A DNA stretch of 64,000 nt, taken from an uncultured Gammaproteobacteria bacterium (lineage in GTDB: Bacteria > Patescibacteriota > Microgenomatia > UBA1406 > HO2-37-13b). The stretch spans positions 32,272 through 96,271 of the forward strand of contig CAZTFB010000003.1 of NCBI GenBank assembly GCA_964612595.1, read 5' to 3'. The translations under genes and the position numbers were made by a program. The notes under the pieces are model-generated. The model ran no database searches. It was given only the letters and a program-made list of their open reading frames with translations, and was not told where the DNA came from. Of this stretch, positions 15,810 through 58,692 are shown piece by piece (positions within the stretch are counted from its first letter, which is position 1; each line of letters opens with the position of its first letter).

Positions 15810-17066
15810 ATGAAAGTAGCAAATTTCATGCGAACCTCGGTGGTTTCGGTATCTTCAGACGAACCCGTGCGAACGGTAACCCGTCTTATCTTCAACCTTG
15901 GTATAAAAAGCGTTCCCATATGTGACGATGGGAAACTAGTCGGTATCGTTACCGAAGAAGACATTCTTACAAAACTCTTCCCTTCTGTACGGGATTTTAT
16001 GGAAGATCGCGCCCATGCTGATGATTTTGAGGCTATGGAAAAAAATTTGGGCGCACTGATAAATAAACCCGTTAAAAAAATAATGACGAGCAAACCCAGG
16101 GTTGTTCATGCGGATCTCCCCATTATGCAAGCTCAATCACTCATGATTGTCGGGAAAATAAGTCATCTCCCCGTTGTTGATGATCAAAAGAAACTAGTTG
16201 GAATTATTTCACAAGGTGACATATTTAGAGCCATTGTAGGCCAAGAAATACCATATGATGACAATGAAGAATATCATGCGTGGCTCTCGCGCCATTGGGA
16301 CCTTGTCGTACCTTGGAAACAACGACTCAGTGGTGAAATTGCTGCGTTCAATAAACTATTCGAAAAGAAATATTCGTATCGCATTCTTGATATTTTCTGC
16401 GGTACCGGCGAACATGCCATCGCTCTTGCCCGTGAGGGCTACGATGTAACTGGTATGAATAAATACATTCTTATGCATAATGCTGCGACGAAAAAACACA
16501 CGCAACTTCCTGAGTACCTCCAAAGACGCATCGAATTTGTCCATGGCGACTATATTGATCTTTTGAAGGATAAAAAGGAAGACTACGACGCAGCAATATT
16601 TATGGGCAACTCTCTCGCCCATAATCCGCATGATTATAAAAAAATCATCAAAACAACAAGCCAAAGTCTCACAAAGAAAAATGCGATAATGATCTTGCAG
16701 ATTGCTAATTTCGATAAAATTCTTGAAAATGGAGGCCTCCAGGATTTCAATATGCGCCCCTCAAAACTTAACGATGACACAAAATACACCTTTATTGAGT
16801 TTTATGACAGTCCCAAAGTTACGGGAAAAAAAGATCTGCTTACGCTCAACATGGCGATATTACGCCACGTTGGTCATCGATGGACCTTCGCTGCTATGAA
16901 TAGCACCCCGATCGCCTATATATCGCCAGATATTATTACTGCAGTTCTAAAAGAGGCTGGATTTAAAAAAGTTGAATTATTCGGTAGCCGCTTTTTAGAG
17001 CCCCTCTTTGAACATAAATTCTCTGTCTCCGATCACGATTGGCTGAACGTGATCGCTTCGCGATAA
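15810..17066 (+). CDS. CBS-pair + class I SAM-dependent methyltransferase fusion protein
   Basis: N-terminal CBS pair (VGIVTEEDIL, VGIISQGDIF). C-terminal methyltransferase motif I (ILDIFCGTGEHAIALAREGYDVTGMN). Confidence 0.7.
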   Translation: MKVANFMRTSVVSVSSDEPVRTVTRLIFNLGIKSVPICDDGKLVGIVTEEDILTKLFPSVRDFMEDRAHADDFEAMEKNLGALINKPVKKIMTSKPRVVHADLPIMQAQSLMIVGKISHLPVVDDQKKLVGIISQGDIFRAIVGQEIPYDDNEEYHAWLSRHWDLVVPWKQRLSGEIAAFNKLFEKKYSYRILDIFCGTGEHAIALAREGYDVTGMNKYILMHNAATKKHTQLPEYLQRRIEFVHGDYIDLLKDKKEDYDAAIFMGNSLAHNPHDYKKIIKTTSQSLTKKNAIMILQIANFDKILENGGLQDFNMRPSKLNDDTKYTFIEFYDSPKVTGKKDLLTLNMAILRHVGHRWTFAAMNSTPIAYISPDIITAVLKEAGFKKVELFGSRFLEPLFEHKFSVSDHDWLNVIASR

Positions 17067-17720: not shown

Positions 17721-18188
17721 ATGAGCGGTAAAATGAAAATCGCAACTGCTGTTGGGCTCTTCCTACTATGGGTTGGTGTGAGCAATAAGCTCCAACCAAT
17801 CAACTTTGGAGGCAGCTCGAACGAGGAGGTTGCGGTCAGCGGCTCGGTGGATACCAGCGCTTGCGCGGGGGTTCACTGGGTCAAGCCTGGCGAAACACTG
17901 AGCAACATTGCAGCGCGATACGGGCATACCGTCATCGCACTCGCACAGGCAAGCAACATCTCGAACCCGAACAAGATCAGTATCGGGGAGAAGGTCTGCC
18001 TGCCCAAGAGCCCAGCGCCAAAGGTCGCAGCCTCAAGCTGCAGCCAACAACATGTCGTCGCCGAAGGCGACACATTGGAGAAGATCGGCAGGCAGTACGG
18101 GACGACGGCTGGGGTGTTGGCGAGCAAGAATGGGCTCGCCAATCCGAATTACATCATACCCGGATGGAAGCTCTGTGTGAGCCCTTAG
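17721..18188 (+). CDS. secreted tandem-LysM peptidoglycan-binding protein
   Basis: N-terminal signal or anchor helix. Two LysM modules (HWVKPGETLSNIAARYGHTVIALAQAS...IGEKVCLP; HVVAEGDTLEKIGRQYGTTAGVLASKNGL...PGWKLCV). GC about 58%. Confidence 0.8.
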   Translation: MSGKMKIATAVGLFLLWVGVSNKLQPINFGGSSNEEVAVSGSVDTSACAGVHWVKPGETLSNIAARYGHTVIALAQASNISNPNKISIGEKVCLPKSPAPKVAASSCSQQHVVAEGDTLEKIGRQYGTTAGVLASKNGLANPNYIIPGWKLCVSP

Positions 18189-18216
18189 GGGCAAGCTCAG
18201 ACGAACAAAGACAATC

Positions 18217-18254
18217 GGTGACCTAGTCGCAACGTGCGTTGCGACTAGGTCACC
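18217..18254. repeat. perfect 38-nt palindrome (17-bp stem, 4-nt loop) after the LysM gene
   Basis: GGTGACCTAGTCGCAAC-GTGC-GTTGCGACTAGGTCACC. No downstream U-tract. Could be a terminator or a protein-binding site. Confidence 0.5.
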
Positions 18255-18281
18255 ACAGTACCTTGCAATAAAAAGGTTTGA

Positions 18282-18512: not shown

Positions 18513-18677
18513 TATACTCACCTATTTTGCCTCTGACCCCATAAAAACGGGATTTTGATTATATAGATGAAAATTTAAGAAGAAAAATGAAAATATATAC
18601 CGTACAGGTGCCAGCGGCCTAACCGCTGGCACCTGTCTCGGTACCTTCATTCGATAACACATCTCCTTTCTGGACCT

Positions 18678-20513: not shown

Positions 20514-22997
20514 TCACTGTTGTGCCAGCCACCCGAGGGCGGCTAGCTGCGGATAGGTCTCCAGCATTGCCTTCCACGATTGGCAGTCGTAGCCGTTTGT
20601 GTTATTCGAAGACGTGCAGGAGTTATTTACGGGCCAGCGACGATCAAAGAACATCATCCCGACCCGATTGTTATCCGACACGCCATAGTGAGACTTAGTC
20701 TTCTGCAGACTCTCCCACTTGGCGGAAGCGCCTCCGAAGCCATCGTTGATCACAACGAATCGAAGGCCCGGGACTCCACCGAAGTCGGCATTGTTGCCTC
20801 CCATCGAATGGAACACGTCCCAGACCAACACTATACCCTCGCCCTTCAAGCCAGCCTTTTCTCGAGCTCTTGCAAACTCTTGAGCAACTTGCTTGACGTC
20901 AGCGAAAGTCAGCGCCGTGTTGTGCTCTTGGTCAACCACGATGCCATCCAATCCAAGTGGCGTTAGCTGAGTAATCCCCTTGCGAAGATCCTCGACCTTA
21001 CCACTCGTATCGAGCAGAACCATGGTGCCATTGGCATGAGCAGTTGGAATCAACTTCACGAAATGATTCATCGTGAAGCCAGAGTGTAGTACGGGTACGA
21101 CAACCGGAGTTGCCGACCTACTCGTTGCGCCTTCTACAGCGCTAGCCCAACTCCTCGCTGCCCCAACGATCTGGTCTTCGGAACAGGTATTCCCGAGCGT
21201 TCCTGGCCCACCGTTTGTACATGGCCACCCCCAGACAGGAGTGAAGAGGCCCGTTGCAGGTACCTCAAACGCGTACGACCGGCTGACACCAGTGAATTTC
21301 TCGAGAACCGAAGCGTCGAAGGTCACGTTACTGTAATTCCTCAGGAAGCGAAGAGCTCCCATTTCGTGCGTCCGGATGGACATGCCGAAGAGGAATGCCA
21401 GCATCATGATCTGGACGTAGTAAACCGCGAATTGAACCCAAAGCCCTTTCAGACTCCCATTCTCGCTCTTGATAAAGTACCGGATAATCAGCCCCATCGA
21501 ACGAAGGGGCACGATGATCACAGCACCCATCGCAAGCAAGATGGCAAGCAAAAGGAGCGTTGGACCGAGCGCTAGTGCATAGGTAAGTGACGGACCTGAC
21601 TGCATGGGATTATTGCCTTGGTAAGGCTCATCCCACGGCCAATCTTCCGTCGATCCGCGAAGGCGATATTCCATTAGCTCAGGATCGAAGTATGTATCGA
21701 CCCTTTCTTGCCTCTGGTTCGCATCGCGGATTTCAAAGTGGACATGCGACCAGCCTGTCATACCAGTCATTCCCACTCTGCCTAGCACAGTTGATTGATC
21801 CACTTCTTGACCCGTCTTTACCATGACGTATCCTTCCGGATCGCCACTGGAACCAGACGGAATCTTGAAAGATGGATCTCGCTCATCAACAAGGTGGGCA
21901 TACACAGTGGAACGGCCGTCTGGATGCTTTATCCACACCCAGCAGCCATAGTTACCGGCGTTATTACAGCCGGCGTATTCCACCTTGCCCGGGGCGGCAG
22001 CACGCACAGCAGCAAGCTGCACCGCGCTGAGATCCCACGCATTCACAGAACACCGACCGGTCTTCACCGGACCAATGATCGTGCACTGCGTGTGATCGTC
22101 TTCATCGGAGCTGATGGTATTGCTGGCAACCGGAAGGCGCCAGCCATCCTTACCCACAAGTCGTCCGTCCCTGAAACCGTCTACCAGCTCTGGTCGTTGC
22201 ACGATCAAATCGGGCTTGAACCAGTTAATGGGAAGACTGAACAGGAACTTCTGGGTTGCGAGGACAGGATGGTTGTAGACCTTCAGACGGTTCTCCACGT
22301 TGTTGTCAGAGACTAATAGCGATGTTTCGCTACACTCTGGCACATTGCATGGATCTCGTCTCCCATATTTTTCATGGGTAGCATAACCCATGTAATCTGC
22401 TCCGATCGACACAAAAGTCCAACCGGACAGATTCATGGGAGCCTTCGGATCATCCGCCTTTACAAAAACGCCTTTGTATCGTCTTGCAAAGTGAAGATGA
22501 GATCCACTAGTTCTACCGTACGCACAGTCAACACGACCGATCCGATCGCTCGCCTGCACCACTGTACCAACAGGTATGCGATCAGTATCGGACATGTGAT
22601 AGTACAGCAGCGACCACGAGTTGTTCGGGTCACCATCACCATCGAGGTCCACGATAACCTCTCCCTCTTTGGAGGTGGTAACCACTCCCGGGGCCGCGGC
22701 AAGAACCCATTCATGCGATATTTCACAGCCCCTTGAAATAGGGACTGCGAAGTCAACTGCAGCAAATTGGCCATCTTTGTAGCCAAGGTGCGGTCCTCCC
22801 GAGTAAATCCATTTCTCCTCAGAGGAGAATGGCAAAAGTAGAGGTGGTTGTTGAGGCGCACGTGCAAGATCGACCCACGTGGAATCCATATGGGTTGAGT
22901 TCTGCGCGTAAACGACATTTTGTTCTTTTGTATGTGCTGAAAGGACGAAAGCCATGATGGCCACCGTCCTCAGCATGCGAAACGCTGGGGTGGTCAT
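20514..22997 (-). CDS. multidomain cell-wall hydrolase with two M23 (LytM-type) metallopeptidase domains, mid-protein TM segments and an uncharacterised C-terminal domain
   Basis: Signal peptide. M23 signatures GRTSGSHLHFARRY and GMTGMTGWSHVHFEIRD. Hydrophobic helices around residues 470-540. 827 aa, GC about 60%. Confidence 0.7.
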   Translation of the reverse strand: MTTPAFRMLRTVAIMAFVLSAHTKEQNVVYAQNSTHMDSTWVDLARAPQQPPLLLPFSSEEKWIYSGGPHLGYKDGQFAAVDFAVPISRGCEISHEWVLAAAPGVVTTSKEGEVIVDLDGDGDPNNSWSLLYYHMSDTDRIPVGTVVQASDRIGRVDCAYGRTSGSHLHFARRYKGVFVKADDPKAPMNLSGWTFVSIGADYMGYATHEKYGRRDPCNVPECSETSLLVSDNNVENRLKVYNHPVLATQKFLFSLPINWFKPDLIVQRPELVDGFRDGRLVGKDGWRLPVASNTISSDEDDHTQCTIIGPVKTGRCSVNAWDLSAVQLAAVRAAAPGKVEYAGCNNAGNYGCWVWIKHPDGRSTVYAHLVDERDPSFKIPSGSSGDPEGYVMVKTGQEVDQSTVLGRVGMTGMTGWSHVHFEIRDANQRQERVDTYFDPELMEYRLRGSTEDWPWDEPYQGNNPMQSGPSLTYALALGPTLLLLAILLAMGAVIIVPLRSMGLIIRYFIKSENGSLKGLWVQFAVYYVQIMMLAFLFGMSIRTHEMGALRFLRNYSNVTFDASVLEKFTGVSRSYAFEVPATGLFTPVWGWPCTNGGPGTLGNTCSEDQIVGAARSWASAVEGATSRSATPVVVPVLHSGFTMNHFVKLIPTAHANGTMVLLDTSGKVEDLRKGITQLTPLGLDGIVVDQEHNTALTFADVKQVAQEFARAREKAGLKGEGIVLVWDVFHSMGGNNADFGGVPGLRFVVINDGFGGASAKWESLQKTKSHYGVSDNNRVGMMFFDRRWPVNNSCTSSNNTNGYDCQSWKAMLETYPQLAALGWLAQQ

Positions 22998-23158
22998 CGG
23001 CCTTGTCCTTTCGAAGGTACCGAGTTGTCAAAGTTCAAAACTGAGTCTTTTCAGACACAGTCCTCCCACACATTGCGGAAGGGAATATATTATACCACGA
23101 GACACAAAAAATAGACTTATAGCAATAAACTACAAGCTTTTTTAAAAAGATTTCGCAG

Positions 23159-24505
23159 CTATATTCCCCCAACGGTATCCACACTGAAGAATCTTACGCG
23201 ATCACCGCGGAAGATAAGCTCTATCTCCCCCGTTGGACCGTTGCGATGTTTTGCAATAAGAAGTTTCATCATTCGTTTTGATTGATCCATCAGTTCGTCG
23301 TTGTCCTCATCACTGTAAAGGAACATAACAATATCTGCATCCTGTTCAATCGATCCCGATTCACGTAGATCAGCAAGCTGCGGTTTTTTTTCACCACGAT
23401 GCTCAATTGCGCGCGAAAGCTGTGATAGCGCGATAACCGGAATTTTAAGTTCGCGCGCGATATTCTTTAAACTCTGAGAAATAAATGACACCTCCTGGAC
23501 CCGACTCTCAAGTCTCTTTCCCGGCGTCGCTAACTGCAAATAATCGACAATAATCATTTTAAGACCCCTTTCGATCGTCAACTTTCTCGCTTTTGTACGC
23601 ATCTCCAAAATTGAAAGGCCGGGCGTATCATCTATGAAAATTGGAGCTTCAGAAAGCTCCCCCATTGCTTGTGTTAAGCGTGTATAGTCTTCATCCGAAA
23701 GTTTCCCCGTTTTCAATTTCCACGCATCAATATCTGCCTGACCAACCAATAAGCGATCCACAAGTTCCTCCTTACTCATCTCCAGTGAAAAAAAGCCAAT
23801 AGGCATTTTTTCTCTTAATGCAATATGAAGAGCCATGTTTAAAGCAAAGGTCGTTTTTCCCACACCCGGACGCGCCGCCAGAATAATTAAGTTAGAATCC
23901 TGAAGCCCCGCAAGTTTACTATCTAAACCTGAAAATCCCGTCGGAATACCACGCATCTTACTATCTGATTTCATAAACTCCTCTAGACGCTCAAAGCTCT
24001 CCGCGAGAATATCTTTTAGCTCGACAAAGTCCCTATGCAAAAAGGCTTGGGAAAGAGCAAAGATATCTGTTTCCGCACTATTTAGAAGATCGCGCACATC
24101 TCCCGTTTCGTCGAACGATTGCTCAACAAGCTTCGACGCTACCGAAATAAGCGTACGCTTTAGATAGCAGTTTTTTACAATTTCAGCATATTGTTTTACA
24201 TATGCTGAGGTTGGCACGATATCAATAAGACCATTCAAATAATCCTTATCACCAATACGCTTCAATGTCCCTTGCTCTTTTAACTCAGCAGCAACCGTAA
24301 TAATATCGATAGGCTTATTCTTCTCAAAAAGTAGGAGAGCTGCTTCGTATATTAGTCTGTTATCGTTGTAATAGAAGTGTTGCGGTAAAAGAATCTCTGC
24401 AACTTCTGAGATTGAGCCTGCATCAATAAGAATTCCGCCGAGAACAGATTTTTCGGCGTGTAAATCATGCGGCGGAATTTTGGTCGGATTCAATTTTTGA
24501 TCCAT
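23159..24505 (-). CDS. dnaB: replicative DNA helicase DnaB
   Basis: N-terminal DnaB domain and Walker A (AARPGVGKTTFALNMALHIA). 448 aa. Confidence 0.9.
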   Translation of the reverse strand: MDQKLNPTKIPPHDLHAEKSVLGGILIDAGSISEVAEILLPQHFYYNDNRLIYEAALLLFEKNKPIDIITVAAELKEQGTLKRIGDKDYLNGLIDIVPTSAYVKQYAEIVKNCYLKRTLISVASKLVEQSFDETGDVRDLLNSAETDIFALSQAFLHRDFVELKDILAESFERLEEFMKSDSKMRGIPTGFSGLDSKLAGLQDSNLIILAARPGVGKTTFALNMALHIALREKMPIGFFSLEMSKEELVDRLLVGQADIDAWKLKTGKLSDEDYTRLTQAMGELSEAPIFIDDTPGLSILEMRTKARKLTIERGLKMIIVDYLQLATPGKRLESRVQEVSFISQSLKNIARELKIPVIALSQLSRAIEHRGEKKPQLADLRESGSIEQDADIVMFLYSDEDNDELMDQSKRMMKLLIAKHRNGPTGEIELIFRGDRVRFFSVDTVGGI

Positions 24506-26908: not shown

Positions 26909-29713
26909 TTAGCTCGTTTCTGCGCTTTCTTCTGCAAGTTTCTTTTGAATCTCACTAATTTTTGGGTCTGACTGTGCTGGTTGCTCATCCTTGTTTATTT
27001 CCTCGTCAATCTTCAATTCTTGTTGTAGTGTTTGTTCCTTTGCTGCCTCCGCTTGTTTTGGCATATCAATATCAACAAACTCTTCTTCAGATGTAACTTT
27101 ATTGCGAATTTCTTCTTCTTTCTGTATGTCGCGCTGAACTTGCTTAGCAGCCTCGACTTTGGCTTTGAGATAGACGAGAAGCTCCTCGCCCGATAGATTG
27201 TTAATCATAAATATGGGGAGAATAAACCCTACCTCGTCAAGACCTTGCTCCTGTAGCTTAATGTCTGAAGACATAATCTTGTTCAAAAGATTGCTGATCT
27301 TTATGACATCTTGCTCAACCCATTCGCTTCGCGAGGTAATATTTTCAGTAACTGGAATTTCGCCGTTTTCATACTGCTCAATCCACATCTTTTTAACTTC
27401 CTCATAATCCTCAATCGAAACTTTCTTTGAGGTTGGAATATGCTGCTCAATATGTTTTTCAGGTGCTGTCGCAACTTCGAGTTGGGCTTTTGCAACATTC
27501 TTAACGGTATCTTGTTCGACTTTCTCTTGTTGTGCAACTTCGCTTGTTACCGATTGGTCAGTCTTGACAATCACCGCTGTTTTAGAGATGACAAGCTTCA
27601 CCTGCTCCTCTTTCAATCCGGTTGCTTCTGCTGTTTTTTTGACGAGCTCGACTGTCGGGCCGTCAATCAAGTCAGGTGTACTAATGGTTTGAAGCACCTG
27701 CTGGGTTTTTGCCGGCGTAAGGTGGGTTTCTTGAGAAATGGTCTGCACAAAGCGTTGATTTACCGCAATGTTACTGAAAATTCTGCTGACAATATCACGC
27801 GTCTTTTCTTTTGGAATACTAAATTTAATGGCGATATTTTGGATGACCGGCACCATCTTTGGCATTGACTGTAAAATACGCTGCTTTGCAGCTTGTTGTT
27901 GCGCGACCGACTTTGAGGTAACTGAGGCTAAATTCTTTGCATCTTGATCACCTTTTATCGCACGACTTTGAATTTCGTCGCGCATATTCATTAGCTTCTG
28001 GCGCTCTGTTGGGGTCTCGGCCTTGAAAGGATTCTGTATCTTGTCGAGATTTCTGCGAGCTTCCTGATTCTCTGTTTTGTTTGTTTCGAGGCGCGCAATT
28101 TCTGTTAGATTAGACGCTTTCATATTCATCGATTGGACAATTGTTTCTGTACGCGCCATACGAATATCCTGTACCGTATCAAGATTAACTCTGGCCTTAA
28201 TCTCAACATCCTTAGGCAGCTTTAGTGCTAGGCCAGCAGTACCTGTTGGTCCTGCTACCGGTCCTGGCGTTGGTCCCTGTCCGGGAGGATTGCGCAGCGT
28301 GTCATACATCGATAAAAGAATATTCTTCATCGCGTATATGCCGTCACAACAGTAATCTCTGAATATGCGAAGGAGCCACCACGGCAATATTAGCACAGTC
28401 CATAACATAATCAATGCAATGACATATTCGGCAAATGTGTCGACATAGTTTGAGGTATTCCAGATGCCTAATGTTTGTGCAGGTCCTCCATATAGAATAT
28501 TGATAGAAGTTGGGTATACGGCTTGCGACATCTGATGGGTGCGAGAAAAATCAAAGACATACGGAATATGCGAGGGAGAATTCCAAATTTTTGCAAGCGA
28601 ACCAAGAAATAAGGCAAATAGCGGACCGTAAAAAACCCACTGGAAAAATACTCCGACCCAAATCCAACCAATGTTGCGAATAAACACCCAAGGGGCAAGA
28701 ATCGCTAAAAATGGCGATACAATAAGTAAGAACCAAAGAACGATCTTGCGCAGAATCATCATAATACCCAGGAAATAGTAGGTCATATTGGTAAACTTGA
28801 CCATAAATTTTGAGGTACGAACCATCTCAAAATTTTCTGCGTTCCAGTTTGTACAACCAATAAATTGTCGATACGCCTGCTCGCTCACCTTTGTCACATC
28901 CCCCTTAGTAAAATCGACAAAGAAAATGTTGAAGAGTTCACGGACACCAAGAGTGCGAATGAAGAATTCCATAACAATATCCGAGAGTTTAATAATAAGA
29001 AGAACAATCTGTGCAGAAAAGAGTACAAAAATTATCAATACCGCAAGTCGTATAACAAGAGGAGTGACTTCTATACCTAGATTGAAGTTGTTGCGCTGAC
29101 TTATGATGATGCCTAGGCCCATGATAATGGCGATGATTAAAATAAAGAATAGTGCAACATTTTGGGATAGCTTCCATACCTCGAGAATAGTTGGATGATC
29201 ATCTATTGAAGGTCTTGTAAGAACCCACAGCAAGAATTGACGAGATCGCTCCCCACCTTTGCCTAATGCTGTTATTTCTGGGTCTTCAACCCAAAAATTT
29301 CTGTTTTTATCGGCAAGCCATTCAGAGTAACTTTTTGCACAGCTTGCTGAATATTGTTCAGATTCTTTTTTACAGCGATCTTCAAGGAGTTTTTTCTGAT
29401 CTGCCGGCAAGGCAGGATCAATAATACATGCTGCGGCAAGGTTCGGACAATACGAACCTTGCCGCGCGCTTGAGGGCTTATCTCCCTGTCCGCTCGCACA
29501 TGGTTCTGGTTCAACAAATTGAGAAGGATCTGACAATGGTGTTCCCGGCTGTGGATAGTATTGAGCAGCTACAAAAGGCGCAAAAATAGACAGAAAAACA
29601 CTTGCCATCACAGCAACAACCAATATGATACGCGCCGACTTTTTCATGAATACTTTCATCATAAAGATAAGTCCCGACCTTTTCAAGACCTGGTCTTCTT
29701 GTATAATATCCAT
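26909..29713 (-). CDS. large polytopic membrane protein with Pro-rich linker and long coiled-coil C-terminal region, possibly VirB6/TrbL-like
   Basis: Signal/anchor (MKKSARIILVVAVMASVFLSIFAPFVAA), about 7 TM helices, a PPGQGPTPGPVAGPTG linker, then an about 430-aa K/E/Q-rich tail. The true start is probably an internal Met near 29650, because the listed start abuts the divergent spoU ATG with zero spacing. Confidence 0.5.
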   Translation of the reverse strand: MDIIQEDQVLKRSGLIFMMKVFMKKSARIILVVAVMASVFLSIFAPFVAAQYYPQPGTPLSDPSQFVEPEPCASGQGDKPSSARQGSYCPNLAAACIIDPALPADQKKLLEDRCKKESEQYSASCAKSYSEWLADKNRNFWVEDPEITALGKGGERSRQFLLWVLTRPSIDDHPTILEVWKLSQNVALFFILIIAIIMGLGIIISQRNNFNLGIEVTPLVIRLAVLIIFVLFSAQIVLLIIKLSDIVMEFFIRTLGVRELFNIFFVDFTKGDVTKVSEQAYRQFIGCTNWNAENFEMVRTSKFMVKFTNMTYYFLGIMMILRKIVLWFLLIVSPFLAILAPWVFIRNIGWIWVGVFFQWVFYGPLFALFLGSLAKIWNSPSHIPYVFDFSRTHQMSQAVYPTSINILYGGPAQTLGIWNTSNYVDTFAEYVIALIMLWTVLILPWWLLRIFRDYCCDGIYAMKNILLSMYDTLRNPPGQGPTPGPVAGPTGTAGLALKLPKDVEIKARVNLDTVQDIRMARTETIVQSMNMKASNLTEIARLETNKTENQEARRNLDKIQNPFKAETPTERQKLMNMRDEIQSRAIKGDQDAKNLASVTSKSVAQQQAAKQRILQSMPKMVPVIQNIAIKFSIPKEKTRDIVSRIFSNIAVNQRFVQTISQETHLTPAKTQQVLQTISTPDLIDGPTVELVKKTAEATGLKEEQVKLVISKTAVIVKTDQSVTSEVAQQEKVEQDTVKNVAKAQLEVATAPEKHIEQHIPTSKKVSIEDYEEVKKMWIEQYENGEIPVTENITSRSEWVEQDVIKISNLLNKIMSSDIKLQEQGLDEVGFILPIFMINNLSGEELLVYLKAKVEAAKQVQRDIQKEEEIRNKVTSEEEFVDIDMPKQAEAAKEQTLQQELKIDEEINKDEQPAQSDPKISEIQKKLAEESAETS

Positions 29714-30265
29714 ATGAAAAAGCTTGATGCGAAAGCTCTTCGTGGCCTAGATGAAAACGAAGACACACCCGAAATCCAGCGCTATCCCATTTTTTTTATT
29801 CTTGACAATATTTATGACACATATAATATAGGTGGACTTTTTCGCCTCGCTGATGGTCTCGCCATCGAAAAATTATATATATGTGGCGAATCAGAAACGC
29901 CTCCAAATCACCGCATAAAAAAGGCCTCGATTGGTACCTATAAAATTGTTCCTTGGGAATATTGCAAAACATCGACCGAAGCTATAAACGCACTTCGCAA
30001 AACACATCCAGACATTCATATCGCTGCTATTGAACAAGACCCCCGCTCAGTTCCCTATCACACACGAACATATACGGCACCGTTAGCTCTTATACTGGGT
30101 AACGAAACGACAGGCGTCTCTCCTGAAGTGCTTGATCAATGTGACAGTATTCTAGAAATCCCTATGTTTGGTATTAATATTTCATTAAATGTCATCGTCT
30201 CTGCTGCAATTGTCAGTTATCATGCGTATAACCAACTTGACATTCTGTCTACACAACAAGTATAA
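29714..30265 (+). CDS. SpoU/TrmH-family RNA 2'-O-methyltransferase
   Basis: SPOUT motifs (YNIGGLFRLADG; LILGNETTGVS; EIPMFGINISLNV). ATG at 29714 chosen instead of the overlapping upstream extension. Confidence 0.8.
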   Translation: MKKLDAKALRGLDENEDTPEIQRYPIFFILDNIYDTYNIGGLFRLADGLAIEKLYICGESETPPNHRIKKASIGTYKIVPWEYCKTSTEAINALRKTHPDIHIAAIEQDPRSVPYHTRTYTAPLALILGNETTGVSPEVLDQCDSILEIPMFGINISLNVIVSAAIVSYHAYNQLDILSTQQV

Positions 30266-30272
30266 ACATATA

Positions 30273-32765
30273 ATGGATACGCTTCCCGATCGATTGCGCG
30301 CACTAACAGAAAAGAAATACTTTGCAATTCTCGCTGTTGTGTTTTTTGCGTTCATAACAGCTATAGTTTTTGCCTTTCTTGCACAACAACCAACCGTTCA
30401 GAATGTAGATCAACTTCGTACCGATATACGACAAGGTGTGTCTTCTGATACATACAGCGGCAGTGATCGAACTGGAGGTAGGAATGGAGGTTTGACCGAT
30501 ACGACTGACGAACAACCTTCGCTCATCGAGCGCGTTGTATCGAGAATTACAGGAAGAAATACACAAACTACACAACGAAACAGCCAAAACAGTCCATCGA
30601 CAACCGATCCTGCCCAAGGCGGAACTCGCCCCGGTCAAAATATCTCAAGTGGTTCTGTCATACCTCCTGAAAATCAAGAGGAAACGCGTAAAAAAATTGA
30701 TGAAGTTGTTATGCCGCTACCAAAAGTGGTGGTTAAAGATTATGTGCTTCAAACCGAACTACCAAGCCCACCGCAAACAGCTAAAATATATAAGCTAAAA
30801 ACAAGCTATACAGATGCAGACATAGAAAAAATGGCTGCTACATTCGGGATGACATCACTAAAGAGCAATGACGTTGTGATTGAAAAAAATAATAGTGGTC
30901 TTACCCAGATATTTGACTTAAAAAACAATATCTATTTAGCGATCAACAATAGAAATGGTAGAATTTTGTTCTCTGCTCAAAATGGTATTCCAGCAGTTTC
31001 CCAAGGAGATCCCAAACAGAACGCGCTCGCGCTCGCGCGCTCGCTCGGCTTTTCACAAGCTTGTCTTAAAGCCACATCATCGTATACCAAACAATCAGAA
31101 CCTCACACAATTTTCGTCGATATCCATTGTGACTGGGAATCAGCTGGAGCTCCAATTGTAAATTACTTTGGCATTTTGAACTTACCACTAAATGAAGCAT
31201 TAAAGGATGTCTCACTTGGTGAACTCCCTTTAACATCTAGTGCTAATTCCGATGGTATAAAAGACGATAATACGGGAGAATTTTCTTCCCGACCAAACGA
31301 TTTTAATACCATTACGCTTCAACAAGACACGCTGACCGGCAACATAATGGGATTCAGTTCGAATATTATGCCTGTTGCCGCTGAAATTGAAGTAAGTGCA
31401 GATAGTATAATCCCCCCTTCCGATGGTTTTGAAAAGTTAAGAAATAATGAGAAACAGTTTGCATTCGCCGGCCCCCAAGGTGCAGGTGCTACAGATCTAC
31501 GTAACGTTTACATAAACAATACTGCCCAGGCAGAAAGCGTACAGCTCACTGACTTTGTACTTGCCTATCCTGTTGTGCCAGGCATAAAGCAAGAATATAT
31601 GTGTCCAGAATGGGTAACTCGCTCACAAGGACGACTCGAGAGCGGTTATGATGGGACATTTGTTGAGTCAGCGCGAGCTATTAATGATAGTCGCTGCTCA
31701 CGTTCCGCTGTACTCGGTACGAGCATAGCGCAAGCTGTCCTTCCAAACCCTATTCCGACAGTGATTGATCCTCTGTCGAGAGGCTCAACACTTCAATATA
31801 AAAACATCATCGTTCAGGGTGATCCGGTTACAGAATCATCATGTCCACCAAAGGCCTCCTTCACAAACGCCATGCAAATTTCAGAAGGTGTGTACCTATT
31901 GTGGATTGATCGCAATGAACGTGGACCAGGTATAAAAAGGTTAGGAATTGGTGGAACAGTTAAAGGTCCCATCACCCCACGCGAATGGTGGATAGGAACA
32001 ACAAGTGAACAACAAGTTGCTGGAGTACTAGGTACTGGAGAAAAAATTTCACCTGATAAAGTATCCTCTTATATGCGTTTTAGAGCTACCAGAGGAGTTA
32101 AAAGCACTATTGGAGATAGATCCGACAACCCTATATCGTCAGTACAAGGAACAATCGTCGCATGCAAATATCTTACAACTGGCTCACCGTCACTCTATAT
32201 TTATAGTTCGACGCAAAAAAGAGTGCACATTACACTTAATCCTGTTGGAGGTATCGTTTTTTCTCAACCAGCCCTCACAACATCGAACGGATGGAGTATT
32301 ACTACCCTCTTAGATGGCACTCTCGATTTTGGCAGCAACACAACAAACAATCGCGCCTATTATGAGTATGATAAGAAAGCATTGAGTGAAGCGCTTTCAA
32401 AGTTCAAATACGTTGAAACTGGTTATGTGGTCAAAAAAGATGAACTAATAGAGCTCTTTGAGAAGCACATTGCATCTGCAATACAGCTCAACGATGCGCA
32501 AACATATGATCTCGTTGGTGAGGTTAAGCGTGAGCTAAACTTAATTACTTCTCCCTATGCAAAAGTCGTCCTTTTGCCGCAAGCAGTGCTCGACGACGTG
32601 CTTCCTGTCGACATCACACCAACTCCTCTCAGTTTTAAAAGATACTTTTTCATCATAAGTGAGGCACATGCAAAAACCACACTTCAAAATCCATCGCTAT
32701 CGCCTATCACCAAAAACGAATTCTATGCTATCGAAACCGGTACCTTCTTTCATATAACCAAGTAA
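30273..32765 (+). CDS. large N-terminally anchored extracellular protein (~830 aa), unknown function
   Basis: TM helix (KKYFAILAVVFFAFITAIVFAFLAQQ), a Ser/Thr/Gln-rich low-complexity linker, and a long beta-rich ectodomain. Confidence 0.5.
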   Translation: MDTLPDRLRALTEKKYFAILAVVFFAFITAIVFAFLAQQPTVQNVDQLRTDIRQGVSSDTYSGSDRTGGRNGGLTDTTDEQPSLIERVVSRITGRNTQTTQRNSQNSPSTTDPAQGGTRPGQNISSGSVIPPENQEETRKKIDEVVMPLPKVVVKDYVLQTELPSPPQTAKIYKLKTSYTDADIEKMAATFGMTSLKSNDVVIEKNNSGLTQIFDLKNNIYLAINNRNGRILFSAQNGIPAVSQGDPKQNALALARSLGFSQACLKATSSYTKQSEPHTIFVDIHCDWESAGAPIVNYFGILNLPLNEALKDVSLGELPLTSSANSDGIKDDNTGEFSSRPNDFNTITLQQDTLTGNIMGFSSNIMPVAAEIEVSADSIIPPSDGFEKLRNNEKQFAFAGPQGAGATDLRNVYINNTAQAESVQLTDFVLAYPVVPGIKQEYMCPEWVTRSQGRLESGYDGTFVESARAINDSRCSRSAVLGTSIAQAVLPNPIPTVIDPLSRGSTLQYKNIIVQGDPVTESSCPPKASFTNAMQISEGVYLLWIDRNERGPGIKRLGIGGTVKGPITPREWWIGTTSEQQVAGVLGTGEKISPDKVSSYMRFRATRGVKSTIGDRSDNPISSVQGTIVACKYLTTGSPSLYIYSSTQKRVHITLNPVGGIVFSQPALTTSNGWSITTLLDGTLDFGSNTTNNRAYYEYDKKALSEALSKFKYVETGYVVKKDELIELFEKHIASAIQLNDAQTYDLVGEVKRELNLITSPYAKVVLLPQAVLDDVLPVDITPTPLSFKRYFFIISEAHAKTTLQNPSLSPITKNEFYAIETGTFFHITK

Positions 32766-32808
32766 TTACTTCTTGACTTTTTTTTACACAATTATTAGTG
32801 TTAATGAT

Positions 32809-34683
32809 ATGCAGGTGTCAAAAAAAGCATTTCGTTTTTTGTTTTCTTTAAGTTTAGTTGGATTTGCTACAAGTCTTCTTTTTAGCTCATCTGCTCACGC
32901 ACAAGGAACTCGTGTTGAATCTCCTGCATGTGAAAATACAATCTGGGTTTGCCCAAGCGTTACTGATTTGGGGCCAAACAATCATGGCATACACACCTTG
33001 AAGCTCAATGCAACTGGCCTCCCCACAACTGATCCACAAAATGGTGCACCAATACAATGGTATACCGTATGTGGTTACGATGATCCGACCAGAGGACAAC
33101 TTTTTTCATCTAACGATAAAGAAACAGACCGACAGCTGTGTTTAGGCGAAGATACTCTTGACTATATGTCGCGCCCTGTTCCATTTTCAGGTGGTCAGTT
33201 AAGCAACTGGTCTATGCAAATGCTCAATGGCTCAACATCGCCAACCACCACATCAAATGGCAATCTTGAGGTGTATGTACGACCGAGATCAGTCAATGTC
33301 CAAAATCATACGTGTTTCTTTGTTGCTAAAACTACGCCATCTGTTGTTGGAAGAGATGAGACAAACGTCGCAGCAGGATCGAAAGATACAGACAGCCTAA
33401 CTTACGCTACTTTTCGTACACAAGGCGAACCTGCAGCATGTCTTTCAGTCCGCGCCGACCCCTTTGGGCGCATTTTTAATGATGCTTTAAAGCCCGTTCC
33501 TGGAGCAGTGGTTAACATTTACGACTTCAACAGCAAGGCGCTCATAAAGATGCCTGGCGTACCAAACCCGGTCGTCACACGCGAAGATGGCATGTTTAAC
33601 TTCAATATCGAGCCGGGTACAAGCTATCTCACCGCAAATCTCACCAATACAGAAGTTACAAAGGTACATCCAAACGCAGTACTTGCCTACAGCAATATAT
33701 ATAAGTATGGCGATCCAATAGTAGAAACACTCAACAATCCGGAACAGCGTGATATTCCTGTTCAAGGAGGACTTCAGCCCGTTCTTAAAGTAATGGGATT
33801 CAGCCATCTCCAACTTGGAGAACAAACACGCATCGAAGGTCGCGCCTCATGGCCTCTTACACAAGTCAATGTCATGCAAGGCACTGTTTCCATCGCACAG
33901 CAGAACGCCGATAAGTTTGGTGGCTTTAGCTTCTTTATAGACAACGGTTCTATCGACCCATCTCAACAACTTAGACTCGTACTTACCGAGGTCGACATGA
34001 CTCAAGGCACGCCAGTCATACCTACAAATCCAAGAACTATTGAGCGAATTTTTGATCCAATCGCCCGTTATCTCGAAGGATACGCCTACGATAAAGCAGG
34101 AAGACTTATGCCTTTTGCTACTGTCCGCATTGTGCTCGACAACACTGACGTCGTCTACTATGAAACAAAAGCAGACGATAAAGCTTTTTATTCTATAAGT
34201 CCAAAATTCCTCCCTATTCTTCCCTACCATCTCGAGTATAGTCCAGCAAATGTTGTACCGGAGCCAGCCAACACAATTAAAGTAACTCTGCCTGAGTTTG
34301 TAAAGAGAAACAAAGAGTATCATGATACAAACCTCATAAGTCCAATGAAAGGTACAAAAAATGGTGTCCAAGTTGATCCTGGAGCATATGTAAAGAACAA
34401 GATGCAGGCTAAAAATGGCCAGGATAACACTACGGGAAATGAGCGCATGCGAGGAGGAAATAATGACCCATACAATAAAATGGGAAATAAAGGTGGCTCA
34501 CCACTTGAAAACCTTGCGCTTGCAACAGGCCAGTCCACAACGACACTTCTTGTAGTTCTCATTGTGCTCTTTATCGCAGTCGCTGTTACCCTTGTTCTCT
34601 ATGTGCGCAATCAGCGCACTAGTCTTATGTCATCAAAAAAATCTCGTGAATACGATGACGAAGAACCCGAAGAAATGGTATAA
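32809..34683 (+). CDS. secreted protein with C-terminal TM anchor, unknown function
   Basis: Signal peptide (MQVSKKAFRFLFSLSLVGFATSLLFSSSAHAQG). C-terminal helix (TTTLLVVLIVLFIAVAVTLVLYV) plus a short acidic cytoplasmic tail. Possible CarbopepD-regulatory-like beta-sandwich segment. Confidence 0.5.
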   Translation: MQVSKKAFRFLFSLSLVGFATSLLFSSSAHAQGTRVESPACENTIWVCPSVTDLGPNNHGIHTLKLNATGLPTTDPQNGAPIQWYTVCGYDDPTRGQLFSSNDKETDRQLCLGEDTLDYMSRPVPFSGGQLSNWSMQMLNGSTSPTTTSNGNLEVYVRPRSVNVQNHTCFFVAKTTPSVVGRDETNVAAGSKDTDSLTYATFRTQGEPAACLSVRADPFGRIFNDALKPVPGAVVNIYDFNSKALIKMPGVPNPVVTREDGMFNFNIEPGTSYLTANLTNTEVTKVHPNAVLAYSNIYKYGDPIVETLNNPEQRDIPVQGGLQPVLKVMGFSHLQLGEQTRIEGRASWPLTQVNVMQGTVSIAQQNADKFGGFSFFIDNGSIDPSQQLRLVLTEVDMTQGTPVIPTNPRTIERIFDPIARYLEGYAYDKAGRLMPFATVRIVLDNTDVVYYETKADDKAFYSISPKFLPILPYHLEYSPANVVPEPANTIKVTLPEFVKRNKEYHDTNLISPMKGTKNGVQVDPGAYVKNKMQAKNGQDNTTGNERMRGGNNDPYNKMGNKGGSPLENLALATGQSTTTLLVVLIVLFIAVAVTLVLYVRNQRTSLMSSKKSREYDDEEPEEMV

Positions 34684-43359: not shown

Positions 43360-44646
43360 ATGAAAAACACCATCGCTATAATCACTAGCTTCCCTGAAAA
43401 GAGGAAGCGCATGCATTCAAACAATAACTTTAATGCTATTGGTTGGCATGCAGAAAAGATAATCTCTCGCCTATCACGGGGCAATCGTCTTGTGGTCCTC
43501 GCTGAAAAAACATCATCAAAAGCTTCGATGTCAAAATTTAACAAAAATACTACCATTCTGAGGACATGGAAAAAGGGCAATCCCCTATCTATACTTATGC
43601 TCTCCAGACACCTTTTGAGTCTTCAAAAAGTCAAACGTATCTATGTGCCTTTCGAATTCAATATATTCGGTGGAACTTTACCAAACATTGCTTTAGTAGG
43701 ACTTCTCATTATTCTCAGAGTGATGGGTAAACAAATTACGTTTGAATTCCATCAGGTAATTTTTGATATCGGTGACCTTAAGAAGCATATTTTCATTAGA
43801 AATGCTTTCCAGAAATATTTTTACAATTTCGGTCTCAAAGTCTTTTATACGCTCATTGGTATTCTTTCAGAATCCGTGATTGTGTTTGAATTAGAACTTA
43901 AAGAACGACTTTCAAAATTCGTTAATAGAAACAAAATATCTGTGCTAAGTCTTTCAACATCAGTATCATCTTCGCTTTCAAAAAAAGCTGCTCGTGAGAA
44001 ACTGAAGATTTCTCATAATGACTTCATTGTGTTAGTTTTTGGCTATATTAATGGCTACAAAGGTATTCCATGGATAATGGAGAAACTCAGCTCGCCAGTG
44101 AAGCTCATTATTGCTGGAGGTAAAAATCCATATCTTAAACACCTTCAACATTACAAAAACTTTTACGCTTCAATCGTCAATGCAGCTCGCAAGTTACCTC
44201 ATGTAACACATACTGGTTTTATTCCTGATACAAAAGTAGAAACATACTATAAAGCAGCAGATCTTGTTGTTATCCCATATGAAGTATTCATGTCGGCATC
44301 TGGACCTTTTTCTCTTGCACTGAGTTATAAAAAACCAGTGCTCTTGGCAGATACGCTCATTGATTACAGTAAATCTAAGGATTTTGCATGTGCTATGACT
44401 AGAGCCGGGATTAAAAGTAAAGACCTATTTTTTTCACATCAAAACAATGAACTACCACAACTTATTAGGAAATATCGCACAAACAAACTCTATCGTGTCA
44501 AACTTCATACTTTTGTTGAACTACTCTCGAATGAACGATCTGAGGAGAAAGTTGTTGAAAAATTGAACTCTCTCCTTGCTTTTACACCAGCATCGAAAAG
44601 GGCTACAATCAATATACTGCCACGATTTCTTTTATTGAGATCGTGA
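43360..44646 (+). CDS. glycosyltransferase, GT-B fold (GT4-like)
   Basis: Rossmann-like N-terminus (IAIITSFPEK). The C-terminal block (YEVFMSASGPFSLALSYKKPVLLAD) resembles the GT4 donor-binding region, although the canonical EX7E is degenerate. Confidence 0.45.
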   Translation: MKNTIAIITSFPEKRKRMHSNNNFNAIGWHAEKIISRLSRGNRLVVLAEKTSSKASMSKFNKNTTILRTWKKGNPLSILMLSRHLLSLQKVKRIYVPFEFNIFGGTLPNIALVGLLIILRVMGKQITFEFHQVIFDIGDLKKHIFIRNAFQKYFYNFGLKVFYTLIGILSESVIVFELELKERLSKFVNRNKISVLSLSTSVSSSLSKKAAREKLKISHNDFIVLVFGYINGYKGIPWIMEKLSSPVKLIIAGGKNPYLKHLQHYKNFYASIVNAARKLPHVTHTGFIPDTKVETYYKAADLVVIPYEVFMSASGPFSLALSYKKPVLLADTLIDYSKSKDFACAMTRAGIKSKDLFFSHQNNELPQLIRKYRTNKLYRVKLHTFVELLSNERSEEKVVEKLNSLLAFTPASKRATINILPRFLLLRS

Positions 44647-58185: not shown

Positions 58186-58692
58186 ATGCAGCCACAGATA
58201 CAAAAATTTGCCTTACTCACATGTTCTTTTATGTTTTTGTTGTCTCTCCTCCTTACAGCCTTCACTCCAGTTAGCGCCGCCGTGCCAAAAACCGACACCA
58301 CAGAAAATTTCGCCACCCAGCCAACCCCAAACCAAGTCATCGTTAAATATAAGAAAGACCTCTCCCCACAAGCCTTACAACTAAAAGTCGATGAACGCAA
58401 GATACAAAGATCTGGCACGTTCGGCTCAATCCGCCTATTTTTCGATAACTTAAAATACAAACTAAATAAGCAAGCTCTCCCAGAAGACCAACTTCTTCGC
58501 ATCCAGCAGGCCGACGAGAAAGCTGGAGCAAAAAACAAGTCGCGCATATTCGAAGGTAATGATGAAAATCAACGTAACCTTTTTGTTGTTGAAATCGAGC
58601 CATCAAAAACAATCGAAGATGCAATCCGAATTTACGAAGCACTACCAGAAGTTGAATACGCTGAACCCAATTATACATTTTTCGCATTTTGA
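58186..58692 (+). CDS. stand-alone subtilisin-propeptide (inhibitor I9)-like secreted protein
   Basis: Signal peptide. VIVKYKKDLSPQAL...VEYAEPNYTFFAF parallels the pro-domain of the downstream S8 protease (EFIIKFKDGHSPAQL...VEYIEPNYIY). No catalytic domain. Confidence 0.55.
   Translation: MQPQIQKFALLTCSFMFLLSLLLTAFTPVSAAVPKTDTTENFATQPTPNQVIVKYKKDLSPQALQLKVDERKIQRSGTFGSIRLFFDNLKYKLNKQALPEDQLLRIQQADEKAGAKNKSRIFEGNDENQRNLFVVEIEPSKTIEDAIRIYEALPEVEYAEPNYTFFAF

Follow-up and report, generated by a model that had tools for sequence, protein, structure and literature searches.

A putative membrane-anchored cell-wall hydrolase of a Patescibacterium joins two M23 domains to a predicted TIM barrel from a rare family that lacks annotation

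In a 64-kb stretch of DNA (referred to as the window), a single open reading frame appeared to combine two M23 endopeptidase domains, hydrophobic mid-chain helices and a C-terminal domain of unclear affiliation. Multi-domain cell-wall hydrolases are well known, and the locus raises the question of what this particular combination does and on whose cell wall it acts. An initial annotation, made from the sequence alone, had described a secreted, peptidoglycan-cleaving protein that might serve in the attack on a host. Only two tRNAs and no rRNA were found in the 64-kb window; by similarity of its DnaB protein, the organism is assigned to the Patescibacteria (Microgenomates-like; candidate phyla radiation). 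The features of the locus are compiled in Table 1.

Table 1. Position of the hydrolase gene, its predicted domains and neighbouring elements in the window
Feature	Position	Strand	Remarks
Whole ORF, 827 aa and stop	20514..22997	-	putative signal peptide, M23A-like domain, LytM-like M23 domain, TM hairpin, TIM-barrel C-terminal domain
Signal-peptide-like segment, residues 1-31, MTTPAFRMLRTVAIMAFVLSAHTKEQNVVYA followed by Q	22905..22997	-	predicted from sequence and ortholog alignment
M23 domain 1, residues ~51-232	22302..22847	-	M23A type; proposed active site H70, D82, H134, H167, H169
M23 domain 2, residues ~281-445	21663..22157	-	LytM/DipM-like; V318 at the canonical HxxxD histidine position
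Two-helix TM hairpin, residues ~471-545	21363..21587	-	TM1 474-498, basic loop 499-517, TM2 518-541
C-terminal domain, residues 584-827	20517..21248	-	predicted eight-stranded beta/alpha (TIM) barrel; rare unannotated family
Extended -10-like element, TGGTATAAT	23089..23097	-	read from sequence; in the spacer between dnaB and the ORF, ~92 nt 5' of the ATG
Partner gene, 348 aa	19452..20498	-	starts 15 nt after the hydrolase stop
Third gene, 254 aa	18678..19442	-	no TM helix, no family
Hairpin, 13-bp stem	18605..18635	-	43 nt downstream of the 254-aa gene's stop codon; T-rich stretch follows on the minus strand

The frame of 827 codons runs without interruption on the minus strand; the plus-strand frame at 20514-22997 contains stops throughout. 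Both HxH-containing M23 signatures noted initially were recovered: SHLHFARRY (residues 166-174) and WSHVHFEIRD (residues 416-425). The Pfam family Peptidase_M23 (PF01551) matched with 93.9 bits (cut-off 28.7) in three stretches spanning both domains, and in NCBIfam and PDB sequence searches M23/LytM proteins were matched separately by residues ~54-185 and ~320-432. The full-length architecture recurred in at least six clusters at 90% identity (P0001-P0006; 72-100% identity, 98-100% coverage), originating from NCBI, JGI, ENA and Logan assemblies, as well as in two GTDB genomes (L003, 81%; L004, 72%). Values of dN/dS were 0.09-0.13 in each of the three putative catalytic domains, the C-terminal domain being the most conserved part of the protein, which strongly indicates purifying selection on all domains. 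Because the complete architecture is found in assemblies of independent origin and purifying selection acts on every domain, a fusion or assembly artefact, which had been considered at the outset, was ruled out. Dual-M23 forms occurred only in P0001-P0009 and P0132, in agreement with the initial view that such a protein with mid-chain TM segments is unusual.

By sequence comparison, the first M23 domain belongs to the LasA/beta-lytic-protease type and has all five active-site residues. Its best Pfam stretch comprised residues 97-179, and in alignments with pseudoalterin (6ik4) and LasA (3it5) the His, Asp and HxH positions were in register; in LasA, the active-site residues are H23, D36, H80, H120 and H122. 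All five proposed residues were kept in the nine homologs that have this domain (9/9). The AlphaFold model, with a pLDDT of ~75-88 across the region, resembled beta-lytic protease (8af1; E 3.8e-10, TM(target) 0.74) and LasA (3it5; TM 0.73). With LasA, beta-lytic protease and pseudoalterin (M23A), domain 1 has in common an HLHF motif, the histidine of YYHM and an extended distance between His and Asp (H70-x11-D82, with x12 in orthologs). However, sequence identity to known M23A enzymes is only ~20-23%, and whereas the latter are free, secreted single-domain bacteriolysins with a propeptide, domain 1 would form the first module of an anchored three-module protein.

The concern that the M23 domains might lack their metal ligands does not apply to domain 1, where all are present, and holds for a single position of domain 2, the first His. 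Domain 2 matched DipM, Csd1 and NMB0315 in sequence and DipM, Csd1 and EnvC in fold. D322 aligned with the Asp of HxxxD in 3slu and was invariant in 13 sequences, as were H368 (YAHL) and H418-V-H420, which aligned to DipM, Csd1 and zoocin A. Further invariant residues of the domain are S296, S297, E299, D301, H302, W321, Y366 and A367 of the Y366-A-H368 motif and the C344/C352 pair. No HxxxD motif was found in domain 2, as position -4 from D322 is V318 instead of His within a conserved SVNAWD. Thus, the domain shares the LytM fold, the Asp of HxxxD, the catalytic His and HxH with M23B enzymes of the LytM/lysostaphin/ShyA/DipM type but differs from them by Val in place of the first His, by an invariant SSxExDH 10-20 residues upstream that provides another His, and by an extra conserved CNNAGxYGC disulfide loop. 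This other histidine, H302, was invariant in the 13 sequences, its distance to the following D322 varying from x9 to x19, and may stand in for the canonical first His. In P0132, H302 is absent and H420 is replaced by Arg, so that both were lost together. M23B includes the catalytically dead 'LytM factors' EnvC, NlpD and DipM, and because the canonical first zinc-binding His is V318, domain 2 could likewise be a non-catalytic regulator of this type. The domain 2 subfamily occurs in Chloroflexota, Patescibacteria and Oligoflexales loci.

The N-terminal segment resembles a signal peptide with a short hydrophobic core and an A-Q junction that are kept in orthologs. The mid-chain TM helices proposed initially were supported by two hydrophobic segments (Kyte-Doolittle 19-residue windows up to 2.79 for 474-498 and 1.86 for 518-541), which the AlphaFold model depicts as two long helices and which are connected by a basic loop. 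They were present in 13 of 13 aligned homologs and in many other family members. Because the two TM helices form a hairpin, all modules should face outward, and according to this hydropathy-based topology the hydrolase should be a membrane-anchored ectoenzyme. With regard to the earlier description of the protein as secreted, export of the modules is thus retained as a prediction, whereas free secretion is replaced by tethering to the membrane through the hairpin. Close homologs have kept three Cys pairs that flank the hairpin, C344/C352 before it and C593/C605 and C809/C820 after it, and where a barrel pair is substituted, as in P0136 and P0137, the substitution affects its two Cys jointly for each pair. 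Together with the basic loop, these pairs would be in line with an extracytoplasmic location of the modules on either side of the hairpin. Some distant family members displayed three mid-chain TM segments in a crude hydropathy scan, an arrangement in which the barrel would lie inside the cell.

The C-terminal part had been described as a domain of about 290 aa and unknown fold. It remains a separate domain, but its fold is now confidently modelled as a TIM barrel (AlphaFold pLDDT 96.2, pTM 0.93) with eight strands at model positions 5-11, 50-57, 80-84, 106-110, 142-148, 166-172, 200-204 and 244-247. Conserved in the family are G590, G599-T-L-G602, D663, D689-x-E691, R712, W726, D752-G753, K760, M782, F784, R787-W788 and the terminal Q827, with K760 as the only invariant polar residue. 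All conserved polar and aromatic residues are situated at or just past the C-terminal ends of strands 3-8, and D663, D689, E691, W726, D752, K760 and W788 cluster at the predicted catalytic face; the active site of TIM-barrel enzymes is located at the C-terminal strand ends. Residues ~584-827 yielded no Pfam, NCBIfam or PDB sequence match, either as a single sequence or as 9- and 28-sequence profiles. An exhaustive profile search among 1.84 billion proteins returned 31 representatives of the family, the distant ones bearing the database name 'hypothetical protein' or none, while P0130, a probable chimera, was the sole match to the domain in a word-based homolog search. An origin from phage or plasmid was rejected, as tblastn gave no match to the barrel in either.

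Structural matches to the barrel in PDB and BFVD were mostly TIM barrels. The best PDB Foldseek matches were generic ones with aldolases (E ~1e-4) and N-acetylneuraminate lyases on top; among the 50 PDB matches listed, the GH18 chitinase 4rl3 had the highest TM (0.55) and none had a GH25 fold. Membership in GH25 and in GH18 was rejected based on hhalign against the catalytic domain of Cpl-1 (probability 0.5%) and the GH18 domain of E. coli ChiA (probability 0.55%), and Glyco_hydro_18 (PF00704) gave no match in the barrel at E up to 10. In the alignment with ChiA, which has this same probability of 0.55%, the D-x-E of the barrel falls on DFDIE. The GH18 motif DxxDxDxE is represented in the window protein only by D-G-I-V-V-D-Q-E; the hallmark of GH18, D-x-D-x-E, occurs in distant members of the barrel family. 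The barrel shares with GH18, GH20 and GH25 glycosidases the eight strands, an acidic D-x-E at the end of strand 4, an Asp after strand 6 and Trp residues lining the catalytic face. However, it is much smaller (~245 aa), and the likeness is statistically non-significant throughout. The barrel also has an invariant Lys and, at its C-terminus, a conserved Gln, neither of which is known as a hallmark residue of GH18, GH20 or GH25. Catalysis other than glycosidase chemistry is possible for the barrel, since K760 is invariant and aldolases are among the fold matches.

The proteins in which the barrel occurs, and those in which it is exchanged, provided a further indication of its function. Among 20 family representatives scanned, 13 had an N-terminal Peptidase_M23, Amidase_2 or VanW domain and seven had no Pfam domain; the barrel is usually positioned behind cell-wall hydrolase domains. 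P0007-P0009 agree with the window protein in both M23 domains and in the TM region but have an SLT domain in place of the barrel; Pfam detected no SLT domain (PF01464, GH23) in the window protein itself. The gene of P0008 directly follows dnaB (83% identical), as in the window, identifying it as a syntenic SLT ortholog. The Chloroflexota paralogs L017 and L019 consist of a domain-2-type M23, the TM hairpin and a GH108 muramidase. Because SLT or GH108 fills the slot of the barrel in these related proteins, a glycan-cleaving role appears likely. Of the two activities suggested initially, glycosidase or amidase, a glycosidase-type enzyme is the most plausible by analogy, given the TIM barrel, the D-x-E and the SLT/GH108 swaps. 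Caldilineaceae (Chloroflexota) keep a core of M23 domain 2, TM hairpin and C-terminal domain along with the partner gene; one genome with this core is represented by a 14-Mb contig.

The hydrolase gene is directly preceded by dnaB with a spacer of 161 bp. Within this spacer, TGGTATAAT is a candidate promoter of a three-gene unit by consensus resemblance only, and it was not reported by a two-hexamer promoter scan. The partner protein begins with TM helices, which are followed by a low-complexity linker and a globular domain that contains Cys, and it is homologous to the TM and LysM protein encoded after the Caldilineaceae hydrolases (profile-profile probability 97.6%, E 2.7e-12). In 13 Caldilineaceae loci as well as in the Microgenomates-like relatives, hence in two phyla, the partner gene adjoins that of the hydrolase, and this conservation of a membrane-anchored partner suggests a regulated hydrolase-adaptor pair. 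In contrast, the 254-aa gene is conserved only within the Microgenomates-like relatives, and no homology was found between it and the gene that comes third in the Caldilineaceae clusters. The hairpin downstream, not listed by the terminator scan, is tentatively regarded as a possible end of the transcription unit. A LysM gene had been placed upstream in the same island. It is located downstream of the hydrolase gene and convergent to it (17721-18188, + strand), ~2.3 kb away and in another transcription unit, with two genes and the hairpin in between; it is syntenic in L003 and L004. The locus lies in conserved synteny among housekeeping genes (dnaB, M24 peptidase). Identity to relatives was 92-94% for DnaB, 72-81% for the hydrolase and 33-55% for the partner, indicating that the hydrolase and especially the partner evolve faster than the neighbouring housekeeping genes.

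Taken together, we lean towards the view that the protein is a membrane-tethered multi-catalytic peptidoglycan hydrolase that remodels the cell's own wall. The N-terminus would be exported, placing the two M23 zinc endopeptidase modules outside the membrane, and the two-helix hairpin would dip into the membrane and back, so that the TIM barrel is displayed on the same outer face. The M23 modules would cut peptide stems or cross-links, and the barrel, as a glycosidase or lytic-transglycosylase analogue with D689-x-E691 as its candidate acidic pair, would cut glycan strands, enabling one anchored enzyme to open the wall locally in both dimensions. The membrane-anchored and presumably co-transcribed partner would probably target or restrain the hydrolase. 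The most likely physiological role would be remodelling or splitting of the own wall, which we favour over an attack on a host because free-living-type Caldilineaceae carry the same core and because the enzyme appears to be membrane-tethered.

Breaching of host peptidoglycan at cell-cell contact by the anchored enzyme of an episymbiont would be in line with the grouping of the organism with Patescibacteria/Microgenomates by DnaB similarity, for which an epibiotic lifestyle is plausible, and with the 938-kb chromosome of the close relative L003, which is consistent with host dependence. LasA and beta-lytic protease, the enzymes closest to domain 1, are bacteriolytic, and the faster evolution of hydrolase and partner compared to DnaB also fits a weapon. 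In another Patescibacterium, peptidase and lysozyme homologues beside virB4 are reported to be essential for epibiotic growth (10.1101/2025.01.22.634366). However, the Caldilineaceae that keep core module and partner, including the one with the 14-Mb contig, are not epibionts, so that the core is no speciality of this lifestyle, and LysM-LasA-like proteins are abundant in Anaerolineae. The two-helix anchor would hold the enzyme at the membrane of its producer, the locus resides among housekeeping genes without a toxin-delivery or immunity-gene signature, and a host of Microgenomates might lack peptidoglycan. The host cell-wall attack proposed initially thus found no specific support, and we consider it unlikely. 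An even less probable role is that of a 'hole-puncher', comparable to VirB1, PrgK, TraG and CwlT of monoderm conjugation systems, which would act locally for a machine that spans the envelope, either type IV secretion or a type IV pilus. PrgK of E. faecalis is composed of LytM, SLT and CHAP domains, the SLT-bearing orthologs P0007-P0009 resemble T4SS hydrolases, and the window also encodes a VirD4-like coupling protein (36727-39153). In hydrolases of monoderm T4SS, SLT and peptidase domains are joined to a membrane anchor (10.1101/2025.01.22.634366). However, neither VirB4 nor any other T4SS component was found in a scan of ORFs from 26.9 to 48.5 kb, and the VirD4-like gene is ~14 kb off, with housekeeping genes in between. 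Instead of secretion genes, the conserved neighbourhood comprises dnaB and two genes of no known function, and the Caldilineaceae loci are devoid of a T4SS context as well. Based on the missing virB4 cluster and the distance of the sole VirD4-like gene, assignment as a T4SS-associated hydrolase of the VirB1/PrgK/CwlT type was rejected.

More room, although still rather little, is left for a barrel that does not cleave glycan and instead has a binding or regulatory function, acts as a Schiff-base enzyme or lyase via K760, or addresses a wall polymer other than peptidoglycan. The aldolases and N-acetylneuraminate lyases, not glycosidases, at the top of the Foldseek matches, the status of K760 as sole invariant polar residue and the lack of a significant match to any GH family are consistent with such a function. 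It is countered by the clustering of D663, D689, E691, W726, D752 and W788 at the catalytic face, the SLT or GH108 domains in the same slot, the fusion to cell-wall hydrolase domains and the high conservation of the barrel. Separately, and at similarly low probability, domain 2 may be a degenerate LytM regulator, as suggested by the missing HxxxD histidine and the clearly degenerated domain of P0132; the invariance of the Asp, the catalytic His, the HxH and the upstream His in 13 sequences argues against degeneration.

In its design, the protein would resemble multifunctional autolysins and T4SS hydrolases such as S. aureus Atl, PrgK, CwlT and the RipA-RpfB pairing, in which peptide- and glycan-cutting modules are joined in a single protein associated with membrane or wall. 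P0007-P0009 likewise unite M23 with SLT. In contrast to the autolysins and T4SS hydrolases, the anchor of the window protein is a mid-chain two-helix hairpin between modules rather than N-terminal, its glycan-side module is an unclassified TIM barrel, and a T4SS context is absent. The new element is this third module, a confidently modelled TIM barrel without a Pfam, NCBIfam or PDB relative. If the barrel cleaves glycan strands, it would represent a new family of carbohydrate-active enzymes. We tentatively suggest, with less confidence than for remodelling of the own wall, that it founds a family of peptidoglycan glycan-strand-cleaving glycoside hydrolases or lytic transglycosylases limited to Patescibacteria, Chloroflexota and a few other uncultured lineages. 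It would act close to the membrane within a conserved two-gene unit of hydrolase and anchored partner, which the LasA-like module of an episymbiont could extend to the wall of a neighbour. Little is understood of the envelopes of Patescibacteria and Chloroflexota, two groups that are sometimes placed side by side in phylogenies, and the system, if true, would provide a new handle on how their walls are built and split.

The 827-codon open reading frame on the minus strand (20514-22997) runs without interruption, while the plus-strand reading of the same interval contains many stops. Both M23 signatures reported in the initial annotation, SHLHFARRY and WSHVHFEIRD, lie in this frame, and domain annotation bore out the dual-M23 reading: Peptidase_M23 scored 93.9 bits (Pfam cut-off 28.7), its matched stretches falling into two distinct parts of the protein, and residues ~54-185 and ~320-432 each matched M23/LytM proteins independently in NCBIfam and PDB sequence searches. 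The concern that the protein might be a fusion or assembly artefact is contradicted by recurrence of the architecture across independent assemblies and GTDB genomes. It occurs at full length, with 72-100% identity, in six clusters of homologs (P0001-P0006; NCBI, JGI, ENA and Logan assemblies) and in conserved synteny in two GTDB genomes, L003 (81%) and L004 (72%). Comparison with these two orthologs by the Nei-Gojobori method gave dN/dS values of ~0.09-0.10 for each M23 domain and 0.12-0.13 for the C-terminal barrel, which are approximate because dS is near saturation in some regions. The barrel is the most conserved part (91% and 84% identity to L003 and L004, respectively). A literature search yielded no description of the architecture or of the barrel family. 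The protein is predicted to be a cell-wall hydrolase of several modules, the third of which is modelled as a rare, unclassified TIM barrel; this barrel is the novel element in an otherwise known kind of multi-module hydrolase.

Domain 1 (residues ~51-232) aligned with pseudoalterin (6ik4) and LasA (3it5), both of the M23A type, with the His/Asp pair of GGPH...AVDF, YYHM and HLHF all in register, and its active-site residues were kept in all nine homologs having the domain. The best PDB matches of the full-length model were beta-lytic protease 8af1 and LasA 3it5 (TM 0.73-0.74 on the target). The metal ligands of domain 1 are thus intact; in domain 2 the canonical first His is missing. Domain 2 (~281-445) is LytM-like and matched DipM, Csd1, NMB0315 and zoocin A. 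Its D322 falls on the Asp of the HxxxD motif, and H368 and H418-x-H420 are invariant; Val318 occupies the canonical His position, four residues before the Asp. An invariant SSxExDH motif puts His302 9-19 residues upstream, resembling the long His-Asp spacing of the LasA-type M23A enzymes. In P0132, an 803-aa dual-M23, hairpin and barrel protein from the representative search, domain 1 is intact, the upstream His is lost and HVRF replaces HxH, making it a natural variant with a degenerate domain 2. The joint loss of His302 and His420 hints that both belong to one site. Domain 2 could be either catalytic or a LytM-type regulator.

The mid-chain transmembrane segments were recovered as hydrophobic stretches at 474-498 and 518-541 (Kyte-Doolittle), modelled by AlphaFold as two long helices with a basic loop between them. 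The N-terminus is signal-peptide-like: its hydrophobic core is short, and the junction between A and Q is conserved. Domain 2 has a conserved cysteine pair (C344/C352) and the barrel has two (C593/C605 and C809/C820), and in the homologs P0136 and P0137 each barrel pair is replaced at both partners together. This pattern fits a predicted transmembrane hairpin that would place all three modules outside the membrane.

Residues ~584-827 had no sequence match in Pfam, NCBIfam or PDB. When 1.84 billion representatives were searched exhaustively with a profile, only 31 proteins of the barrel family were retrieved, and no barrel-encoding record was present among the phage and plasmid records searched. 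AlphaFold, using a 28-sequence alignment, returned an eight-stranded beta/alpha barrel (pLDDT 96.2, pTM 0.93). In this model all conserved residues lie at or just past the C-terminal strand ends, the canonical active-site face of TIM barrels. The last residue, usually in the context ...QQ, is a conserved Gln in 25 of 28 family members, and its position directly past strand 8 means that the C-terminus itself may reach this face. The barrel also forms the C-terminus of P0130 (JGI, 440 aa, 4.3-kb contig) behind a fumarate-lyase-type N-terminus (PF00206); it is identical to that of the full-length homolog P0002 from the motif RTYEFEVPATG onward, and P0130 probably stems from a chimera in assembly or gene calling and does not represent a real architecture.

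Conserved residues of the modelled C-terminal barrel
Residue or motif	Window position	Location
G590		strand 1
G599-TLG		loop past strand 1
D663		strand 3
D689-x-E691		strand 4
W726		strand 5
D752-G753		past strand 6
K760		helix start past strand 6
R787-W788		loop past strand 7
Q827 (terminal)	20517-20519	past strand 8

Foldseek matches of the barrel were weak, generic TIM barrels: aldolases and N-acetylneuraminate lyases at E ~1e-4, GH20, GH5 and hexosaminidases among PDB or BFVD matches, and GH18 chitinase 4rl3 with the highest TM (0.55) among the 50 PDB matches listed. The barrel profile was not significant against Cpl-1 (GH25) or E. coli ChiA (GH18); in the non-significant ChiA alignment strands 2-5 are in register and the barrel D-x-E falls on DFDIE. 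Peptidase_M23, Amidase_2 or VanW precedes the barrel in 13 of 20 scanned family representatives (the other seven have no Pfam domain), and a transmembrane helix lies within 56 residues in ~16 of 27. In P0007-P0009 both M23 domains and the transmembrane region are kept and an SLT lytic transglycosylase replaces the barrel; since P0008 directly follows a DnaB 83% identical to that of the window, this swap occurred at the orthologous locus. The Chloroflexota MAG P01_B01_bin.57 encodes three paralogs with this M23 subtype and hairpin, two ending in a GH108 muramidase (L017, L019) and one in the TIM barrel (L006). One Saccharibacteria protein of 550 aa (L021) carries the same subtype at its C-terminus, and its N-terminal ~330 aa match nothing in Pfam. 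Taken together, the fusions, the SLT swap and the GH108 paralogs suggest that the barrel probably cleaves cell-wall glycan. Of the three alternatives that occupy its slot, two are known to cleave glycan strands, which gives a function like that of a glycosidase or lytic transglycosylase roughly an even chance; the barrel may otherwise use a different chemistry via the invariant Lys or be non-catalytic. Of the earlier guess of a glycosidase or amidase, the model and domain swaps favour glycan cleavage, with no sequence-family match.

Along the minus strand a metallo-beta-lactamase-fold gene comes first, then dnaB and the hydrolase; 15 nt past the hydrolase stop a 348-aa gene begins, and a 254-aa gene follows it. 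DnaB (23159-24505) shares 67-73% identity with proteins named Woesebacteria, Roizmanbacteria, Microgenomates and Patescibacteria, and the closest genome, L003 (OZ246401.1), is a complete 938-kb chromosome, indicating that the window derives from a Patescibacteria bacterium of Microgenomates type. Judging by the syntenic DnaB, the title 'uncultured Gammaproteobacteria' of L003 is probably a mislabel. TGGTATAAT in the 161-bp spacer preceding the hydrolase and a 13-bp hairpin after the 254-aa gene are both tentative, as a consensus scan reported neither. The LysM gene (17721-18188), syntenic in L003 and L004, was thought to lie upstream in the same island; it is instead a convergent, downstream, separate unit on the plus strand. 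Just past it, on the side of the hydrolase unit, a perfect hairpin with an 18-bp stem (18216-18255) is the strongest terminator-like structure of the region and may serve both converging units. A CBS-domain and methyltransferase fusion gene (15810-17066, plus strand), duplicated in the SLT-variant locus L051 (4968-7483), is a loosely conserved neighbour of the hydrolase at these two loci. A 934-aa protein without Pfam/NCBIfam match (26909-29713, minus strand), 86-88% identical in L003 and L004, is more conserved there than the hydrolase. A 562-aa subtilisin-like protease (58689-60377, plus strand) best matched mycosin (type VII secretion-associated) and dentilisin PrtP models, under curated cut-offs.

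In the 348-aa partner protein, N-terminal transmembrane helices are joined through a linker to a Cys-containing domain, and homologs follow the hydrolase in L003, L004 and the SLT-variant loci L050 and L051. At 13 Caldilineaceae loci, a shorter hydrolase, made up of signal peptide, domain 2, hairpin and barrel, is in every case followed by a 344-aa transmembrane protein with a LysM end. Comparison by hhalign showed that the two partner families share a homologous central domain (probability 97.6%, E 2.7e-12), which indicates that the pair is conserved across two phyla; the third genes proved unrelated on comparison.

A role as a hole-puncher of a type IV secretion system (T4SS) is unlikely, as no virB4 was found among the ORFs scanned (26.9-48.5 kb) and the sole T4SS-like gene, encoding a VirD4-like coupling protein (36727-39153, plus strand), lies 14 kb off. 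Around that gene are large ORFs (858, 636 and 980 aa; 30189-34683 and 44643-47585) without family match, possibly a divergent Patescibacteria T4SS region. Host cell-wall attack, as proposed in the initial annotation, is possible: the genome is of an epibiont type, domain 1 resembles LasA, the hydrolase-partner pair evolves faster than its neighbours, and peptidase/lysozyme genes are reported to be essential in another Patescibacterium (10.1101/2025.01.22.634366). However, this proposal gained no specific support in our analysis. The core module is also present in large-genome Caldilineaceae, including a 14-Mb contig, and this occurrence, the predicted anchor in the cell's own membrane and the housekeeping-gene surroundings favour a self-wall role, in which the hydrolase would remodel or split the cell's own wall.
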